A DNA stretch of 26,455 bases from a virus: the UHGV virus genome UHGV-0075053. The stretch is one strand, 5' to 3'. Below, in pieces: positions 68 through 24,393 of the stretch. Under the pieces are notes generated by a model. That model was not told the DNA's origin and did no database searches. It saw nothing but the letters and a program-made list of their open reading frames with translations. The translations under genes and the position numbers were made by a program. Positions within the stretch are counted from its first letter, which is position 1; each line of letters begins with the position of its first letter.

Positions 68-121
68 AAATCCTCCCCACATTATCTCAGTACTTTAACC
101 ACTCAAAAGGGAGTATTTTTA

Positions 122-694
122 ATGCTGATTGGCTACATACGTGTGTCAACAAATGACCAAAACACAGATTTGCAACGCAAAGCATTAATGTGCGCAGGAT
201 GTGAACAGATTTTTGAGGACAAAATGAGCGGAACCAAGTCGGAACGTCCAGGCCTGAAACGCGCTTTAAAGTGCCTTAAAAGAGGGGATACATTGGTGGT
301 CTGGAAGCTGGATCGGTTGGGTAGAAGAATGAAACACCTCATTGCTCTCACAGAAGAGCTACGCGCAAAAGGTGTCAATTTTCGCAGTCTGACGGATTCA
401 ATCGATACCAGCACTCCGATGGGAAGGTTCTTTTTTCATATGATGGGTGCACTGGCAGAAATGGAGCGTGAACTGATAGTTGAGCGCACGCTGGCAGGAC
501 TGGCTGCTGCGCGAGCACAAGGGAGAGTTGGAGGACGTCGCCCGAAACTGACGAAGGAGCAGCATGAGCAGATCGCAAGATTGCTCCAGAAAGGGTATGA
601 CAGAAAGCGGCTGGCAATTATCTATGATATTGGACTGTCAACGATCTACCGCTACCACCCTGTTGGGACTGTCATAACGCAACCTGAAATGTAA
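122..694 (+). CDS. pin: serine recombinase, DNA invertase (Pin/Gin/Hin/Cin family)
   Basis: Translation from ATG 122 (MLIGYIRVSTNDQNTDLQR...GDTLVVWKLDRLGR...) closely matches the e14 PinE N-terminal resolvase domain with catalytic Ser in YIRVST; C-terminal HTH region diverges. The ORF-track start at 32 is an upstream extension across the crossover site. Confidence 0.9.
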   Translation: MLIGYIRVSTNDQNTDLQRKALMCAGCEQIFEDKMSGTKSERPGLKRALKCLKRGDTLVVWKLDRLGRRMKHLIALTEELRAKGVNFRSLTDSIDTSTPMGRFFFHMMGALAEMERELIVERTLAGLAAARAQGRVGGRRPKLTKEQHEQIARLLQKGYDRKRLAIIYDIGLSTIYRYHPVGTVITQPEM

Positions 695-834
695 TTCTTT
701 TTCAAATAATGAAACGCCGCGTGGATGCCATTTATCGCACAAGATAGAGTGCATTTATCGCGCGGCGCATCATACAGCCCTTTAGCCTCCAGTTCTTCCG
801 CTTTGCTGTCTTTAATCATGCTGTACCTCACTGC

Positions 835-1260
835 TTAAAACGGTATTCCGTCCCCGTACGGATCATCGTGCTGGCCTGTCTGTTGTTTTGCCCTGTTCAG
901 TGCGTCAGTAGCCTGGCCCTGCTGGCCTTTTTTGCCGCCCGGTCGCGCCGTTCGCGCACTGATTACGCTGTCTGCGATGACCTGCCAGCCCTGCCGCGTT
1001 TCGCCGTTCTGGCCTGTCCACTGGCTTACCTGCATGTTACCCGCCACGCTCACCAGTTCGCCTTTCTGGTGTTTTGCCAGTGCGTCGGCCTGTCTGCCAA
1101 ACGCCAGGACGGATAACCACATCGTCGCCGTTCCGTCATCTGCCTGGCTGCATGGCAGGGGAACCGCCATACTCGCCATCGCCATTTGTGTTCCCTTGCT
1201 GGTGGTCTTTAACTGCGGGTCAGCCACCAGCCGCCCGTAAGCCGCTATCTGTGCTGTCAT
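835..1260 (-). CDS. SSB-like single-stranded DNA-binding protein
   Basis: OB-fold-like pattern (GRLVADPQL...TMWLSVLAFGRQADALAKHQKGELVSVAG...W) and Gly/Gln-rich tail ending DDPYGDGIPF, resembling the SSB acidic C-terminal tip; ATG at 1260 with GGAGAA upstream. Confidence 0.6.
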   Translation of the reverse strand: MTAQIAAYGRLVADPQLKTTSKGTQMAMASMAVPLPCSQADDGTATMWLSVLAFGRQADALAKHQKGELVSVAGNMQVSQWTGQNGETRQGWQVIADSVISARTARPGGKKGQQGQATDALNRAKQQTGQHDDPYGDGIPF

Positions 1261-1323
1261 GCTGTCTGTTCTCCGGTTTTAACGTTGATTGTTACGCTTG
1301 TTTACACCCTTATGGTGAAATTC

Positions 1324-1470
1324 TGCGGGTTATAATCGCACTTTTGCGGGTTATAACTGCCGTTTTGCGGGTTATTTTGGGTATTTTACGGGTTACGATT
1401 TTCCTGCCATTCCTTTAATAATCATATGGATACTGATTTATCCACAGAAATAACCCGCATAACCCGCAAA
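1324..1470. repeat. putative replication origin iterons of the satellite element
   Basis: Direct repeats TGCGGGTTAT(A) at 1324, 1345, 1366 and a degenerate copy at 1388, with exact 21-bp phasing; inverted copies ATAACCCGCATAACCCGCAAA at 1450-1470; lies between the ssb and primase genes. Confidence 0.6.
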
Positions 1471-1496
1471 ATTTTCACCCTACACGCGAGAAAAAA

Positions 1497-3623
1497 TTAA
1501 TCTTCTTCGCTTTCTGGCTGGAACATCAGCACGTAAAAAACATGCTGCTTCCCCCCAATTTTGCCGAGCGCCTTTTTCTTGTAACGGCGATCGTTACCCG
1601 CTTCCAGCATTCCGGCAGCACTCAACGCGCGGGCAAAGTGAGACGGATTAAATCCCTGTGCTATCTCACCCTCAAATACATGCGGGAACGTGTAAAAACG
1701 GAACTCGTCATCTTCGTTTCTGATACTCCCCTTTCTGTATCCGGCAAGCTCTTTAATCGGTAAATCACGCTCGTCAGAGTTGGGCCAGGGAAGGTATCTG
1801 CTGAATCCGAACGACGCTAAAAAAGCCTCTGCCTGTTCAACCATCTGTTTAAACTCCCTGTTACCCGTGCCGAACTCCTTCACCCAGGCATTAAAATTAT
1901 GCTGTATGGCATCGCGGCATTCCTGCTCATCCCAGCCAGTAACATGACCTGAAAGCACAAGCGCGGCCTCCAGTATGGCAAATCGCTCCCCCACACGGTG
2001 AACCTGTTCGCCGTAGCTCTCCGGTATCAGGTTGCGCCACCGCTCACGGCATGTCCTTACCGTGTCCTTTGCCTCCTGCTGGTGTTCTGCCAGCCATTTA
2101 ACCCACTCACGACCCGCCGCCCCGTGATTTGCTGTCCAGGCATCCTTTAACGCGTCTGCGTGCGCCTTTCCGGTGCTGTATTCGTGAAATTGCGTGGCTT
2201 TTTCCATCGGAACGTTAAGCAGGCGGACAAGCTGCCCCGCTTTGACTTTTATCCCCTCCGTTTTGAGGAATGTCTCAACGTCCATTTCTCCGGTGCTGAT
2301 TGCCACCGTTCGCCAGTGTTTTATCTCCCTGTTGCCGCCGTCCTTTGCCCCCTGTAATTTCCCGGAACCGTTAAACAGCGTATAGGCTGACGTGGACACC
2401 TCCCGCGCGTTTCCGGCCTGGCCTATTTCATCCAGGGGTAAAAGCCCGTCATTGTGTGCCTCTGCTTCGTTGGCGATACCTAACGCTGTGCCGTACCAGG
2501 TCAGCCGCTGCGCGTCCGGCTCTCCCCATAAACTTGATGCGATGTTCTGCGTTGTGGTCTTACCTGCCGATGACTGTTCGAAAAGATGTACCCCGAAGCC
2601 GTCAGCGCCCACCAGCCCGATTAATGGTGCGGATAACGATACCGCCACCCCCAGCATCATGGACGGATTACCACCAGCCAGTCGCGCCACGGTGTCGCGC
2701 CAGCCCTCCGCCGTTCCTGCCACGGAATAGCCATTAACAGCAGCAGTTTTTCCGGTAAACAGGACTGGCTTTTCGCAATCACCAATGACCGAACCGTCCG
2801 GCATGATGTACGCGCCAAAATGCCAGCCCGTTGTTGTGCTTAACTGCCATTCCTCATGGCTTCCGCTTAACTGCATCCAGTCAGCCAGGATTGCCCTGTA
2901 TTTACCGTTGGTTGTTACGTTCAGTCCGTGGTCTTTCAGCAGCCGCCAGCCGTCACGGTCGCCAATGCCACCGCACGGAACCGCCATTGTGATGACTTCA
3001 TGATTTGCTGGCTTTTTCCAGCGCATCACGCGGTAATGTTCTTTGCCGATTGTCCCCGTTCCCAGCAGTTCAAGCGGGGAACATAACCACGTCTCAGGCC
3101 GGATAATTTCGCCTGACTGCTTGTCCACTTTTGGCGTAACCCAGAAAACACCATCGGCGCGGCTTTCAACGCGGGGCTTTAATTCATCATCACCCGGGCT
3201 TTCTGTGATTTTTTTCTTTAAGGGCAACACCAGACTTTCCCCGCGCTCGTATTCGTCTTTGAGGCGAGGCAACTGGTCGGATAAATCCGCCGGGCTGGTG
3301 TCAGTTATCCCCGCGTATTCGTATACGGTCTTCACGCCAGCCACAGCCAGCAACGTGACGATCTGTGTAAGGCTACGTTCAGTGATGTGCCCTGCGCGGT
3401 AAATACGCACACACTGACGGCTATCATCAATAATTTGATAACCGGTAATATCTTTCAGGTGTTCATCTGACAGAACGACAGGCGGCACATTGTCGGCGGC
3501 AATATGCTTACCTGCCCATTCCTGCCACTCTTTCGCATGGCTCCACGCATCACTACCCGCAAAGATGATAACCTCCGTCATTTTGTCGGCTGGCTGGTGC
3601 TTTAAGTTTGGTGCGCGCTTCAT
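1497..3623 (-). CDS. primase/helicase-type replication protein of mobile elements (DUF927-like with P-loop)
   Basis: 708 aa; Walker-A-like SSAGKTTTQ; overall resemblance to primase-helicase proteins of E. coli integrative elements (from memory); start ATG overlaps the upstream gene stop (ATGA). Confidence 0.7.
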   Translation of the reverse strand: MKRAPNLKHQPADKMTEVIIFAGSDAWSHAKEWQEWAGKHIAADNVPPVVLSDEHLKDITGYQIIDDSRQCVRIYRAGHITERSLTQIVTLLAVAGVKTVYEYAGITDTSPADLSDQLPRLKDEYERGESLVLPLKKKITESPGDDELKPRVESRADGVFWVTPKVDKQSGEIIRPETWLCSPLELLGTGTIGKEHYRVMRWKKPANHEVITMAVPCGGIGDRDGWRLLKDHGLNVTTNGKYRAILADWMQLSGSHEEWQLSTTTGWHFGAYIMPDGSVIGDCEKPVLFTGKTAAVNGYSVAGTAEGWRDTVARLAGGNPSMMLGVAVSLSAPLIGLVGADGFGVHLFEQSSAGKTTTQNIASSLWGEPDAQRLTWYGTALGIANEAEAHNDGLLPLDEIGQAGNAREVSTSAYTLFNGSGKLQGAKDGGNREIKHWRTVAISTGEMDVETFLKTEGIKVKAGQLVRLLNVPMEKATQFHEYSTGKAHADALKDAWTANHGAAGREWVKWLAEHQQEAKDTVRTCRERWRNLIPESYGEQVHRVGERFAILEAALVLSGHVTGWDEQECRDAIQHNFNAWVKEFGTGNREFKQMVEQAEAFLASFGFSRYLPWPNSDERDLPIKELAGYRKGSIRNEDDEFRFYTFPHVFEGEIAQGFNPSHFARALSAAGMLEAGNDRRYKKKALGKIGGKQHVFYVLMFQPESEED

Positions 3624-12643: not shown

Positions 12644-12859
12644 TTACTCTCCCCGTGCAGCCTTACGCTTGTCTTCTCTGATTTTGAAGTACAGATTTGT
12701 CAGATAAGTCAGGAAGCCCAGAACCAGACTCCCAAGTACACCAATCGCAGCCCACTGTGACGGACTGACCTGATCAAGCCACTGTAAAAACCAGTAGCCA
12801 GCACTGCCTGCGGAGGTGCCGTAGGCAATGCCCGTTGAAATTTTGTCCATGGATTTCAT
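12644..12859 (-). CDS. class II holin, phage 21 S-type, with MKSM dual-start motif
   Basis: [71 protein letters not shown] is near-identical to S21 (from memory); dual starts M1 and M4. Confidence 0.9.
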
Positions 12860-13151: not shown

Positions 13152-13226
<75 letters not shown>

Positions 13227-13342
13227 ATCCTGGAACTCGGCTACCTGATTTTCATTCTGCACTGAATATCGAGAGAAGCTCTCTTTATTCGAGCCGGTAA
13301 GCGAACTTATCGTCTCGGGCTACGCCATCGCGTGGCCGAAAT

Positions 13343-13427
<85 letters not shown>

Positions 13428-13435
13428 GGACTTGA

Positions 13436-13511
<76 letters not shown>

Positions 13512-13513
13512 AC

Positions 13514-13590
13514 TGGACCGCCACCGGGGACTCGAACCTCGCACACTCAACTTAAAGGGTTGACGCTCTTTCCTGATGAGCTAGTGGCGG
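13514..13590 (-). tRNA. atypical tRNA-like gene, anticodon UUU (Lys-like) with unusual anticodon loop CCUUUAA
   Basis: Cloverleaf can be drawn: acceptor CCGCCAC/GTGGCGG, D-arm GCTC/GAGC, anticodon stem TCAAC/GTTGA, T-loop TTCGAGT, 3' CCA; but C at position 33 and an A-C mismatch in the T-stem are non-canonical. Confidence 0.45.
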
Positions 13591-13591
13591 T

Positions 13592-13667
13592 TGGTGGCCC
13601 TTGCTGGATTTGAACCAGCGACCTGGCGATTATGAGTCGCTCGCTCTCACCACTGAGCTAAAGGGCC
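13592..13667 (-). tRNA. tRNA with CAU anticodon, ileX/ileY-like (tRNA-Ile2 type; Met not excluded)
   Basis: Reverse complement GGCCCTTTAGCTCAGTGGTGAGAGCGAGCGACTCATAATCGCCAGGTCGCTGGTTCAAATCCAGCAAGGGCCACCA resembles E. coli ileX from memory. Confidence 0.7.
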
Positions 13668-13787
13668 GGGCGCAGGATAATAACGTTACGAAATCAATGT
13701 TGCAAGCATTCAAAAATCACCTGGTTAAAAATCACCCTTATCTCCTCCACCAGCGCATTCACCATGTCTATCCGAGATAAGTGACAC

Positions 13788-13811: not shown

Positions 13812-13931
13812 AAGTTGTGTGGCGAAGCGACCACTCTTAACAGATTAAGATAGTTTTTGCGTACGCGTTAGTGATTTTTTCATAATTATCTGTATCCTGT
13901 GGCTATTTCTCTTGCGCAAAGGATGCTTTTG

Positions 13932-14810
13932 ATGACGCAGCAACTCGAAAACATGCCAATAACAGAAATCGAAATTGCCTACGGTGGAGAGGCATACGCA
14001 GATAATCAGATCGACGCGAAAACATTAGGCGAAGCCTTAACCTCTCTTAGTGCCCTGATTGAACACGCCGAAAAAATAATTAATGGCGAAACAGCAGAGC
14101 CGAAAGTCAACATCAAGGCAACAAAAGAAGGTTCATTTACTTTGCTTGTTGCTGTGATGGGGAGCATAAAAACTATTAACGCCCTTGGCCTCGTTGCAGG
14201 TGGTGGAGTTGCCGCAGGTGGCGTACTCGGGATAATCGAATGGCTCAAAGGGCGTAAAATCAGCTCCATTGTCGTCGATGAACAAAAAGATACAGCAGAA
14301 ATCGAAGTGGATGGTGAGAAGGTTAAATGCAGTAACGACATTCAAAAATTAATAACCAGTCCAATCATCCGAAAAGAACTGGATAAATTAATCTATAAAC
14401 CCCTGCAGACTGAAAAACCATCCACGTTCTCAGTTTCACAGCAGAAGCATAAGGTAGTCAGGGTGACGCAAGCTGAAGCAGTAAGTTTTAAAACTGCAAA
14501 ATCCACCTTTGTCGAGAAAACGCACGTAACGACACGCCAAGCTAATGTACATTTTGCTAATGTTCGATTCAAGCAAGGCAAAAGCTGGGATATCATCCTG
14601 CCAAATGGCGAAGAAGTTAGCGCATCTATGAAAGATGAGGCTTTTCTTGAACGGGTTGAACACAACCAAGCAGCATTCTGTAAGGGTGATCTTTTTGTTG
14701 TAGAACTGACAGAAACAACAAAAGAAACAAATGGCGCGCTGTCTAAACCACGCTATAGTATTACTAAGGTTATACGCCACAGAGCGGCGGCAGATAGGAA
14801 ACTACTTTAA
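13932..14810 (+). CDS. hypothetical protein (292 aa) with central Gly-rich hydrophobic hairpin; first gene of a three-gene cassette
   Basis: ATG 13932 with AAAGGA RBS 8 nt upstream; candidate promoter TTGCGT-18-CATAAT at 13857-13886; hydrophobic segment FTLLVAVMGSIKTINALGLVAGGGVAAGGVLGIIEWL; no recognised catalytic motif. Confidence 0.6.
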   Translation: MTQQLENMPITEIEIAYGGEAYADNQIDAKTLGEALTSLSALIEHAEKIINGETAEPKVNIKATKEGSFTLLVAVMGSIKTINALGLVAGGGVAAGGVLGIIEWLKGRKISSIVVDEQKDTAEIEVDGEKVKCSNDIQKLITSPIIRKELDKLIYKPLQTEKPSTFSVSQQKHKVVRVTQAEAVSFKTAKSTFVEKTHVTTRQANVHFANVRFKQGKSWDIILPNGEEVSASMKDEAFLERVEHNQAAFCKGDLFVVELTETTKETNGALSKPRYSITKVIRHRAAADRKLL

Positions 14811-14813
14811 ATC

Positions 14814-15059
14814 ATGTCAATCCTAAGCATTATGCTTTACATCACTGTATTCATGGCTGTCGCAGCGACGGTCAGATATGCTGTGCTTAGGTTCTTGGTT
14901 TGGGTAAAGCCGAATGCGTATATTGAACTAACCTACACCGATCCTGAAGGCAGAACCGCTAAAAGGAAAGTCAGCGTTAGAAACGAAAATGACGCAGAAG
15001 AGTTGGCGCTACTGCTACGCGAACTCAAAACTCGCAACGAAGCAAGTGCAGGAAGGTGA
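14814..15059 (+). CDS. small membrane protein (81 aa, one N-terminal TM helix)
   Basis: Starts 4 nt after the upstream stop; N-terminal hydrophobic helix SILSIMLYITVFMAVAATV; charged C-terminal tail. Confidence 0.55.
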   Translation: MSILSIMLYITVFMAVAATVRYAVLRFLVWVKPNAYIELTYTDPEGRTAKRKVSVRNENDAEELALLLRELKTRNEASAGR

Positions 15060-15446
15060 ATGGCGAACACTAAATCCTACCTGGCAATGCAGGCATGGTT
15101 TACCACCCTTATCACTGCGGGATTGAATTTCCTTTTTGACTGGCTTCCTCAATTAGCCTTCTTCAAATCATTGGCGCCTGGAGCTGCTGTCGGCTTATCT
15201 CATGTGGTAATTCTTCTTATCGCTTACATAGGTTTGCCTACGCTTAATGATGTAAGAATGAAAAGGGAAATAAAAACGGCCAGAAAATTCATCACGAACT
15301 GCCTGGCCAACCCTAACCTAACACCAGACCAAATTGCGCACTACAACCAATGTCTTATCGATCTAGACAATAAGCTATTAAAAAACATAAATATTCGTAT
15401 TGATGCTTTATCTGACGCCGAATCGAAAGCTCAAGCAAACGAGTAG
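15060..15446 (+). CDS. small membrane protein (128 aa, two predicted TM helices)
   Basis: ATG immediately follows the upstream TGA; GGAAGG RBS; hydrophobic segments AWFTTLITAGLNFLFDWL and AAVGLSHVVILLIAYIGL. Confidence 0.55.
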   Translation: MANTKSYLAMQAWFTTLITAGLNFLFDWLPQLAFFKSLAPGAAVGLSHVVILLIAYIGLPTLNDVRMKREIKTARKFITNCLANPNLTPDQIAHYNQCLIDLDNKLLKNINIRIDALSDAESKAQANE

Positions 15447-15459
15447 TAACAGTCATAAC

Positions 15460-15819
15460 TTATGATAGAATCAAGCATATACATCCATCAATAAAGCCTA
15501 ATGCAGTTTGCAGCTCCTTTCTTATAGTTCCATCTGAGCACCTGCGTTTCTTCGCGATTGAGCGTAGAGAAACACCAATAACAAAGTGAGCTATGAGCAG
15601 CTCATATTCCTCTGGTTTATACTTTCGCAACCGAGCCACACAACCGTCTATCATGATGCCTTCATCATCATCACACTGGAGACGTGACTTTTTGCCATGT
15701 GGCAAAAGCCCCTTGAAGCCCGCTGCTATCGGTTGCCAATCGACACCGCTATTTTCTGCTGCAGCCCATGCCCCCCAGCGATCTAAAACCTCATACATAT
15801 CACGCCCCATTACCATCAC
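15460..15819 (-). CDS. late antiterminator Q (Qin QuuQ / phage 82 type); start probably an internal Met
   Basis: YEVLDRWGAWAA...WQPIAAGFKGLLP...SRLQCDDD resembles E. coli QuuD/QuuQ (from memory); directly downstream of rusA. Confidence 0.75.
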   Translation of the reverse strand: MMVMGRDMYEVLDRWGAWAAAENSGVDWQPIAAGFKGLLPHGKKSRLQCDDDEGIMIDGCVARLRKYKPEEYELLIAHFVIGVSLRSIAKKRRCSDGTIRKELQTALGFIDGCICLILS

Positions 15820-18345: not shown

Positions 18346-18501
18346 TTACTCCTCAGGTTCGTAAGCTGTGAAGACAGCGACCTCCGTCTGGCCGGTTCGG
18401 ATTCGTACCTCGCAGAGGTCTTTCCTCGTTACCAGTGCCGTCACTATGACGGTTAAACAGATGACGATCAGGGCGATTAACATCGCCTTTTGCTGCTTCA
18501 T
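18346..18501 (-). CDS. hokD: Hok/Gef-family small membrane toxin (HokD/RelF-like)
   Basis: MKQQKAMLIALIVICLTVIVTALVTRKDLCEVRIRTGQTEVAVFTAYEPEE matches E. coli HokD from memory; start set to ATG 18501. Confidence 0.9.
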   Translation of the reverse strand: MKQQKAMLIALIVICLTVIVTALVTRKDLCEVRIRTGQTEVAVFTAYEPEE

Positions 18502-19125
18502 AGCCTGCTTCTCCTTGCCTTTCGGCACGTAAGAGGCTAACCTAGATTTGCCGTTCATAGATTGAGCCTCAGATTAATGTTAAGCGTCTTGCAGGACGCG
18601 TAATGTTAACTGGGGCTTTTCTCTATCTGCCTTTGGTGTTCATGCCTGAGACAGATAGCCTCAAGCACCCGCAGCCATTCTACTTAACTCCCGTTACCTC
18701 GCCAATATAAAATCAATCAGAAAAGCGATCCATAAGAACAACAGCAAGACAATAAATTGCCATTACAGCTGCAATAGCCAGCGCACATTTGAGAACCAGC
18801 ACGACAACCTCCTGTATTGGACGTACACCAGTTCTGATAAATATGAGGCTGTCTCATCATTGATGAGATACAACTATTGGGTATAGTTTCTGTGATTTTG
18901 TTCTGTAGAAATGGAACACAACAACCAGTCACCACCAGCACTTCTTTAAATACGCCAAGTCCGACGCAAGCTAACCTTCTAGTCCGCTTTGAGCGAAAAG
19001 CAGACTGTCACGCGTTGAAGTTAATTGTATTACTTAGATAAACACTATCATTTTCCTGACGTTAAGTTGTATCTTTGATAGGATTAAAAAACGTATAGAT
19101 AGCTTATGCTACTGAGGGAATAAAA

Positions 19126-24013: not shown

Positions 24014-24342
24014 TAGCTAACCAACGAAGCTAAGGTTGGTAATTAAGGAGTTCTCCACGGGTGAAGTGGAGTGCGTGCGCCGGACACGGGTGAACATCCG
24101 GCACTGACAGTTTACTGAAAGGATATTTCTCTGAAAAGTCAGAGCATAACGCGAAAGTACACGGAGAAGCTCGTCTCTCTGTACTTTGTCGTTAAATTTA
24201 ATTCGACCGTGCGCTTCCGGTTGTGGCAATCCGCGAAATGGCGCGGCGGTAAGTATGGCGGGGTTATTCCTTCCCCTTGAGGACACCGGGTTGTCAGGCT
24301 GACCATACGCTTAAGTGACAGCCCCGCCACAATATCCATGTG

Positions 24343-24393
24343 TAGTCTTTGGTGGCATCAGTTCTACTCCGTGACTGCTCTGCCGCCCTTTTT
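24343..24393 (+). ncRNA. dicF: DicF small RNA (ends approximate)
   Basis: GGTGGCATCAGTTCTACTCCGTGACTGCTCTGCCGCCCTTTTT matches the 3' part of E. coli DicF including its terminator hairpin (from memory); about 175 nt upstream of dicB. Confidence 0.65.

Follow-up and report, generated by a model that had tools for sequence, protein, structure and literature searches.

A prophage-borne tRNA-Lys(UUU) on an arginine tRNA scaffold

The UHGV virus genome UHGV-0075053 (26,455 nt; this whole stretch is referred to as the window) carries on its minus strand, at 13514-13590, a genuine but atypical, prophage-borne tRNA gene with a UUU anticodon. Judged from its sequence, this tRNA-Lys (designated allele A) is a phage-lineage tRNA that descended from argN, a tRNA-Arg of Stx2 phages, through a switch of its anticodon to UUU, and is not a copy of a host tRNA-Lys. 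The best-supported reading of its role, which we advance tentatively, is that of a nuclease-insensitive Lys decoder, with the putative insensitivity residing in the argN-type scaffold and not in the unusual C found at position 33 (C33).

ARAGORN assigned a tRNA-Lys(ttt) to exactly this span and strand, and cmscan aligned 13517-13590 to Rfam RF00005 with 44.4 bits (E=1.4e-6), above the gathering score of 29 bits, so the tRNA scoring that the first-pass annotation had proposed as a check came out in favour of its call. That annotation had described a tRNA fold with a CCUUUAA loop containing C33, an A-C mismatch in the T stem, a CCA end and spacers of 1-2 nt; both the sequence and the cmscan alignment agree with it, and its hand transcription of the loop was right in every detail. 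Its view of an atypical tRNA-like gene in a prophage likewise holds: the gene belongs to a lambdoid prophage, where it occupies the late leader that separates Q from the gene for holin S.

The RNA reads CCGCCAC-UA-GCUC-AUCAGGAAA-GAGC-G-UCAAC-CCUUUAA-GUUGA in its 5' half and continues GUGUG-CGAGG-UUCGAGU-CCCCG-GUGGCGG-U-CCA in its 3' half, giving a four-arm cloverleaf with acceptor stem CCGCCAC/GUGGCGG, D arm GCUC-AUCAGGAAA-GAGC, anticodon stem UCAAC/GUUGA closing a 7-nt loop, and T stem CGAGG/CCCCG. The cmscan alignment shows every one of U8, A14, G18G19, T54-Psi55-C56 and A58; U73 serves as discriminator, and the gene itself encodes the CCA (13516-13514). The anticodon loop C32 C33 U34 U35 U36 A37 A38 occupies 13558-13552, with C33 at 13557 and the anticodon at 13556-13554; another register of the loop was rejected, the 5-bp stem and 7-nt loop being unambiguous and covariation being seen at 27-43 and 30-40. 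U33 is near-universal in tRNAs and makes the U-turn, and the gene departs from the usual tRNA in lacking it as well as in lacking a fully paired T stem with the cloverleaf as the stable fold, A51 (13539) standing opposite C63 (13527). Only 1 nt separates it from the upstream tRNA(CAU) and 2 nt from tRNA-Thr. A chance match is excluded because the exact 77-mer recurs in 279 of 5426 complete E. coli genomes and about 500 more carry near-identical copies.

Descent from argN by an anticodon switch

The tRNA-Lys aligned base for base with the Stx2-phage argN, a tRNA-Arg(UCG), and was identical to it at 65 of 77 positions, against only 47 of 77 for host lysT. In the ileZ-argN-argO cluster of Stx2a_F349 (AP012530), argN occupies the same second slot of the Q-to-lysis leader, 1 nt after an ileZ identical to the ileZ-type gene of the window, and both genes have C1-G72, A20 in the D loop, the A51·C63 mismatch in the T arm, U73, an encoded CCA and similar Rfam scores (43.0 bits for argN). 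The 12 differences cluster in the anticodon arm (6 of its 17 positions versus 6 of the 60 elsewhere; Fisher p=0.02) and include the change of the anticodon from UCG to UUU, by which the arginine C35 and G36 gave way to U35 and U36, the replacement of U33 by C (loop CUUCGAA in argN, CCUUUAA in the window) and pair-preserving changes in the stem, which is UCAGC/GCUGG with a paired CNG motif in argN and UCAAC/GUUGA in the window. The acceptor wobbles G3·U70 and U7·G66 of argN are replaced by Watson-Crick pairs. Host tRNA-Lys (lysT and others) resembles the window tRNA in UUU, C32, A37, A38 and the motif 36-UAA-38, but differs from it in having G1-C72, A73, U33, U16 and U39 C40 A41.

Across 42 distinct full-length sequences of the family, 96.3% of the cloverleaf cells held standard pairs versus 29-53% in slid controls, and double-sided pair changes were found at 4-69, 7-66, 27-43 and 30-40. 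Those at 7-66, 27-43 and 30-40 separate the Lys lineage from most argN sequences, and the one at 4-69 separates a second Lys allele, B, from allele A. The four changes amount to few evolutionary events, but they do show that the Lys lineage evolved as a base-paired tRNA.

In an unbiased sample of IMG/VR contigs anchored on ileZ, the slot after ileZ was polymorphic and held the Lys allele, many variants of the argN body (nearly all with a perfect cloverleaf and the canonical CUUCGAA loop) and scrambled pseudogenes. A loose pattern for the family, scanned against genome contigs, matched almost exclusively actinobacterial tRNAs without relation to it and yielded one useful E. coli locus (L158). 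Some 25-30 IMG/VR contigs, such as the class beginning CCGCCATTAGCTTATCAGGAAGAGCAGACGACACGATAACAGGG, have an intact ileZ followed by a scrambled argN in which unrelated sequence takes the place of the anticodon arm, and in these ARAGORN gives no tRNAs other than Ile and Arg(UCU); the position after ileZ is a hotspot of change and loss beside an invariant ileZ. The Stx-phage argN itself (Stx2a_F349; L003 2501-2577) combines its G3·U70 wobble, the classical alanine identity pair, with U73 and A51·C63, and its cloverleaf lies far from the predicted minimum free energy (MFE) fold; its true aminoacylation identity may merit a check.

Two Lys alleles and the polarity of C33

Sister allele B was found in one IMG/VR contig (L232; UViG_2861053794_000003) and, among the 5426 complete E. 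coli genomes, exactly in 13 (ECOR29, 95-3322 and others) with 7 near matches; it is much rarer than allele A. Its sequence, CCGUCAC...AUCAAC-CUUUUAU-GUUGA...CGGGG/CCCCG...GUGACGG-U-CCA, is identical to allele A at 70 of 77 positions and shares with it the scaffold, the UUU anticodon, the UCAAC/GUUGA stem, U73 and the slot after an ileZ-type tRNA. The differences include U33, U38, a perfect G51-C63 pair and a compensatory U4-A69 pair. U33 is present in allele B as well as in the argN outgroup, which makes C33 the derived state; in allele A it is also fixed: all 103 allele-A copies sampled from IMG/VR have it, and a synthetic allele A with U33 had no exact match in the 5426 complete genomes. The motif 36-UAA-38, required for the t6A37 modification, is intact in allele A, and the 36-UAU-38 of allele B breaks this determinant; bacterial TsaBD does not read U33 in a base-specific manner (PMC13276492). 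Downstream of its tRNAs the allele-B contig also carries four tandem copies of the small RNA (sRNA) family STnc100 (L232 2265-3380, minus strand), and the Stx2 phage locus L003 has a single copy.

Lysine identity and absence of published nuclease determinants

Lysine identity in E. coli is carried by U34, U35, U36 and A73, and arginine identity by A20 (the main element), C35, U/G36 and A/G73; any substitution of A73 lowers lysine acceptance (PMC9976931). With its UUU anticodon the window tRNA has lost the arginine determinant C35 and gained three of the four lysine determinants, and its U73 should lower the efficiency of lysylation. In the mechanism that we propose, the tRNA would be transcribed with the late genes when Q permits read-through, perhaps with a contribution from a promoter-like site that shortly precedes ileZ, and excised from the packed array by RNase P and 3' trimming. 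It would then be lysylated by host LysRS, a step proposed because the UUU anticodon carries most of lysine identity, and would decode AAA and AAG. Owing to its Arg-type anticodon stem, D loop and acceptor stem, it lacks the features by which tRNA-Lys-directed nucleases recognise the host tRNA, so that it could survive the destruction of host tRNA-Lys and sustain late translation.

The UUU anticodon is the one targeted by PARIS AriB, PrrC, RloC and, secondarily, P2-OLD, and escape of a phage tRNA-Lys(UUU) from such nucleases is established for T5 versus PARIS (PMC11464382, PMC12409363). AriB cuts E. coli tRNA-Lys between C40 and A41 and needs U36AAUC|A41 and U16; cleavage is lost with U39A and reduced with A41C or U16C (PMC12409363). 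Restoring the AriB site in T5 tRNA-Lys did not restore cleavage, which indicates that contacts with the tRNA body also matter (PMC12409363). The window tRNA has G39 U40 U41 and C16 in place of the host U39 C40|A41 and U16, on an unrelated body, and thus departs from the host at every position experimentally tied to AriB. P2-OLD, which brings about P2-lambda interference, needs a paired CNG motif at 28-30/40-42, where it cleaves 3' of C28 and C40; it prefers tRNA-Thr(UGU) and also cleaves tRNA-Lys, and protection against it comes from a tRNA-Thr carried by lambdoid phage 21 (PMC12445682). These positions read CAG/CUG in argN and CAA/UUG in the Lys allele, the CNG motif having been lost through the compensatory change of G30-C40 to A30-U40. 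The published AriB and P2-OLD determinants are therefore absent from allele A. The cut made by PrrC lies 3' of U33, and RloC removes the wobble nucleotide (PMC2610378); in the window tRNA the base 5' of the scissile bond is C instead of U. Rescue from PrrC170 was obtained with a phage tRNA-Lys but not with extra host tRNA-Lys (PMC11555353).

Two experimentally supported phage tRNAs frame this comparison. The T5 tRNA-Lys(UUU), a suppressor of PARIS, resembles the window tRNA as a phage UUU tRNA that differs from the host at 39 and 41 and has C16, but it is a recognisable tRNA-Lys homologue with a GGGU acceptor, A73 and a CUUUUAA loop with U33, and it is experimentally resistant and rescues infection, whereas the window tRNA, with its Arg-type body, U73 and C33, is a putative substitute; the searched literature contained no experiment on its resistance or on rescue by it. 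The tRNA-Thr(UGU) of phage 21 (tRNA-Thr21) is likewise a tRNA of a lambda relative, in which an altered anticodon stem removes the determinant of a prophage Toprim tRNase (PMC12445682). It has another anticodon and another target, and its resistance is demonstrated; in the window only the Lys gene is divergent.

The first-pass annotation had speculated that the gene could provide a cleavage-resistant substitute or a decoy, with C33 as its distinguishing feature. The idea of a substitute stands in so far as the AriB positions differ and escape by phage tRNA-Lys is established. For its attribution to C33 we found no evidence: the T5 tRNA-Lys keeps U33, and gamma-toxin, an unrelated nuclease, was indifferent to U33C (PMC2275089). 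For PrrC, the searched literature contained no mutational data on position 33, only the fact that the enzyme cuts 3' of U33. The evasion argument rests instead on the argN (tRNA-Arg) scaffold, and C33 is a derived, fixed peculiarity of allele A that the mechanism does not need. A bolder version, in which an Arg scaffold re-coded to Lys hides from all nucleases that read the body of host tRNA-Lys and the fixed U33C is a second adaptive layer blocking enzymes of the PrrC/RloC type, whose cut falls on the phosphodiester directly 3' of residue 33, seems to us improbable. If true, it would make this tRNA a natural case of alloacceptor remolding as counter-defence, and a functional bacterial elongator tRNA without the near-universal U33.

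Distribution, diversity and damaged descendants

Matches to the tRNA-Lys were found in 798 of the 5426 complete E. coli genomes (~15%), of which 279 were exact, 474 were at 95-99% identity and 45 at 90-95%, counts that are confounded by clonal over-sampling. Exact allele A is also present in the induced or isolated temperate phages vB_EcoM-606R7 and vB_EcoS-689R5, and a variant in PhiR47_1. The near-identical class comprises harmless variants (A45, U2·G71) plus two abundant damaged forms, one that has lost 1 nt of the D stem and occurs in STEC in the order ileZ-Lys*-argO, and one with U8C/C11U; deletions in the anticodon arm also occur among damaged descendants. Neither of the abundant damaged forms reaches the Rfam threshold, and PGAP annotates neither, yet ARAGORN still calls them tRNA-Lys. 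GenBank PPompW records (LC5678xx) carry the D-stem-deletion form annotated as tRNA-Lys, and such damaged derivatives (L226 1501-1576; L227 1501-1577; PPompW) are likely pseudogenes annotated as genes.

Over 62 distinct Ile-Lys-Thr-Gly cassettes, nucleotide diversity (pi) was 0.0017 for ileZ, 0.0089 for Lys, 0.0088 for Thr and 0.0083 for Gly, and it was 0.16-0.26 in the flanks (150 nt on each side of the cassette). The value for Lys is biased downward, half of its positions being fixed by the search pattern, but when doubled it is still about 10-fold below the flanks.

Predicted folding

Folding was computed with nearest-neighbour parameters for unmodified RNA, ignoring tertiary contacts and modifications, so that the energies are a caution and not a verdict. 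Changing A51 to G in allele A in silico made the cloverleaf the MFE fold (-29.2 kcal/mol), and changing C33 to U left the fold unchanged; C33 was accordingly rejected as the cause of the folding defect, which stems from A51·C63. Allele B folds as a cloverleaf at its MFE (-27.0), and in the Stx2-phage argN, which has the same mismatch, the cloverleaf is likewise not the MFE fold. The folding z-score was -4.6 for host tRNA-Lys versus -1.5 for the window tRNA.

Weighing the nuclease-evasion reading against its alternatives

The reading as a nuclease-insensitive Lys decoder draws on the tRNA fold, the argN ancestry with its pair-preserving changes, the low diversity of the cassette between highly diverse flanks, the presence of the allele in induced or isolated phages, the retained 36-UAA-38 and the missing AriB and P2-OLD determinants. 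Several observations weigh against it. The cloverleaf of allele A (-22.3 kcal/mol) is less stable than a rod-like MFE fold (-25.0), the A51·C63 mismatch costing about 7 kcal/mol in this model, and the gene has the lowest RF00005 score among the five tRNAs of its cluster, all of which match the family. U73 stands in place of the lysine determinant A73, C33 removes the base that makes the U-turn, and all three of U33, A73 and a Lys-like body are retained in the T5 tRNA-Lys, whose role is validated. The Thr, Tyr and Gly neighbours are host-identical and hence not resistant variants. Large sub-lineages of the tRNA-Lys carry lesions (the D-stem deletion, U8C), which indicates that selection is not strong everywhere, and the low diversity of the cassette may reflect recent spread instead of selection. 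Expression, lysylation, decoding and nuclease resistance of the tRNA are, moreover, predictions.

Many of the same facts would suit a decaying relic, that is, a Lys-anticodon tRNA of the argN lineage that is damaged (U33C, A51·C63, U73) and survives as a non-functional or nearly non-functional passenger kept by recent spread of the cassette, a reading that we regard as somewhat unlikely though by no means negligible. C33 is derived relative to allele B and argN, and it and the A·C mismatch, as derived features of the allele, could just as well signal the onset of decay; the MFE fold is no cloverleaf until A51G repairs it, the Rfam score is 44.4 bits versus 53.2 for allele B, and there are many worse-damaged descendants with the D-stem deletion, U8C or anticodon-arm deletions. 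Many carrier prophages are also defective, the E. coli S51 prophage having several frameshifted genes. What speaks against decay is that the diversity of the Lys gene equals that of its host-identical Thr and Gly neighbours and lies about 10-fold or more below the flanks, that the exact sequence is retained over diverse prophage backgrounds and in inducible phages, and that double changes on the Lys lineage preserve pairing. The A51·C63 mismatch is common to the widespread Stx2-phage argN and so has persisted for long, and is not a mark of recent decay.

A role in codon supply, in which the cassette would boost tRNAs for codons favoured by the AT-richer late genes and the Lys gene would add capacity for AAA and AAG, is in our view less probable still. 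The codons read by the cassette anticodons all end in A and are mostly rare (AUA, AAA, ACA, GGA), and the late genes of the window use, per 1000 codons, 64 AAA+AAG, 10.2 AUA, 14.6 GGA and 11.2 ACA, all above the E. coli averages of about 44, 4, 8 and 7, respectively. This suits Ile2, Thr and Gly well but fits Lys poorly. Host tRNA-Lys(UUU) is not rare, K-12 having six tRNA-Lys genes in total with five in one cluster, and a plain dosage role is less compelling because the host already has at least five such genes in a single cluster. Little extra capacity would be expected of a tRNA that has U73, C33 and a T stem of reduced stability, an Arg scaffold was re-coded instead of lysT being copied while Thr, Tyr and Gly were copied verbatim, and the late genes are rich in AGA (12.2 per 1000), yet the window cassette is without argO. 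We find it very hard to credit a non-decoding role, either as a processing signal for RNase P/RNase E that shapes the late transcript ahead of the lysis genes or as a decoy or competitor that binds the nuclease but takes no part in translation. The 1-2-nt packing implies obligatory endonucleolytic processing, and over-expressed viral tRNAs possibly inhibit AriB by competition (PMC12409363), but a processing signal needs no conserved UUU anticodon, 36-UAA-38 motif or encoded CCA. A decoy should mimic the host target, and the AriB and OLD determinants of that target are missing here; there is no evidence for the decoy proposed in the first-pass annotation.

Genomic setting of the tRNA cassette

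The array runs in the order Ile2(CAU)-Lys-Thr-Tyr-Gly on the minus strand. The first gene is an ileZ-type tRNA(CAU) at 13592-13667, given as Met/Ile2 by ARAGORN, with an Rfam score of 72.5 bits, and as tRNA-Ile of the lysidine Ile2 type by PGAP. After the Lys gene follow tRNA-Thr(UGU) at 13436-13511 (100% identical to K-12 thrU), tRNA-Tyr(GUA) at 13343-13427 (an exact copy of host tyrU), a 116-nt spacer at 13227-13342 identical to the host tyrU-glyT spacer, and tRNA-Gly(UCC) at 13152-13226 (an exact copy of host glyT), all on the minus strand and all three tRNAs detected by ARAGORN and Rfam. The whole segment 13152-13512, in which Thr and Tyr are separated by an 8-nt spacer, is 100% identical to K-12 thrU-tyrU-glyT, which identifies these genes as verbatim captures from the host operon and not as resistant variants. 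The possibility that the neighbouring Thr(UGU) is a resistant variant like that of phage 21 was accordingly rejected, its sequence being that of host thrU with the CUG/CAG motif intact.

Neither tyrU nor the spacers occur in the common form of the cassette, and the whole five-tRNA array was found in none of the 5426 complete E. coli genomes and nowhere in the phage database. It is present on a 515-kb metagenome contig (L340 5600-6115), whose related prophage shares 95-99% identity with the window, and on other contigs (L339, L325, L338) Thr precedes a tyrU that is either complete or truncated. An assembly chimera through the 76-nt repeats was rejected as the source of the Thr-Tyr-Gly segment, since the array recurs in the non-identical prophage of L340 and partly elsewhere. 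The window array probably preserves the ancestral capture of the host operon, with the common Ile-Lys-Thr-Gly form being a tyrU-deletion derivative.

Upstream of the cassette lie RusA and an intact late antiterminator gene Q (15460-15819, minus strand; Pfam PF06530, 3.8e-45), which defines where the late operon begins. The downstream side has, as its first lysis gene, a P21-type holin S (12644-12859, minus strand; Pfam PF04971, 1.4e-35; also supported by synteny in S51), together with a DUF1327/YdfR protein and a lysozyme. The E. coli S51 prophage is collinear with the window, and PGAP annotates there tRNA-Ile, tRNA-Lys, tRNA-Thr and tRNA-Gly between Q and the holin; the position of the cassette is that of ileZ-argN-argO upstream of stx2 in Stx phages. 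The promoter-like site TTGCAA-17-TATTAT (13677-13705, minus strand; 9/12 match) stops 10 nt short of the first tRNA and shows conservation in the Stx2-phage alignment, and a scan of the region found promoter-like sites to be no more numerous than expected by chance; this site could permit Q-independent (lysogenic) expression of the tRNAs.

Between Q and the cassette, a module of three open reading frames (ORFs) lies on the opposite strand (13899-14810, 14814-15059 and 15060-15446, plus strand). The 303-aa protein of 13899-14810 matches the PADLOC candidate defence system PDC-S42 (E=3.3e-53) and has no Pfam domain, and the other two ORFs match only PHROGs of unknown function; the module is a possible defence moron adjoining a possible counter-defence tRNA. 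Elsewhere in the window, a sok antitoxin RNA (18496-18670, minus strand; 110 bits) beside a hok-type ORF and a DicF sRNA (24337-24388, plus strand; 58 bits) are typical of Qin/Rac-like lambdoid prophages.

Implications

That this gene is annotated as tRNA-Lys in public genomes and that phage tRNAs serve as counter-defence was already known. Its origin from argN by an anticodon switch, the existence of two alleles that differ in U33/C33 and in T-stem integrity, and a scaffold free of AriB and P2-OLD determinants were not described in the literature searched, and these three points appear to be new. If the gene is decaying, it is a caution that calls of the ARAGORN type and some GenBank annotations give the name tRNA-Lys to clearly damaged copies. 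The natural pair of alleles, one with C33 and the A·C mismatch and the other with U33 and a perfect stem, offers a probe of the importance in vivo of U33 and of the T stem, and of position 33 in the action of nucleases.

Counter-defence by phage tRNAs has so far been seen mainly in large virulent phages such as T5 and in one lambdoid tRNA-Thr, and roughly one complete E. coli genome in seven carries the tRNA-Lys allele. If functional, it would mean that temperate lambdoid phages also carry a tRNA-Lys that escapes nucleases of the PARIS, PrrC or P2-OLD type, and that they reached it by a route other than the known one, placing a Lys anticodon on an unrelated tRNA body instead of mutating a Lys tRNA.

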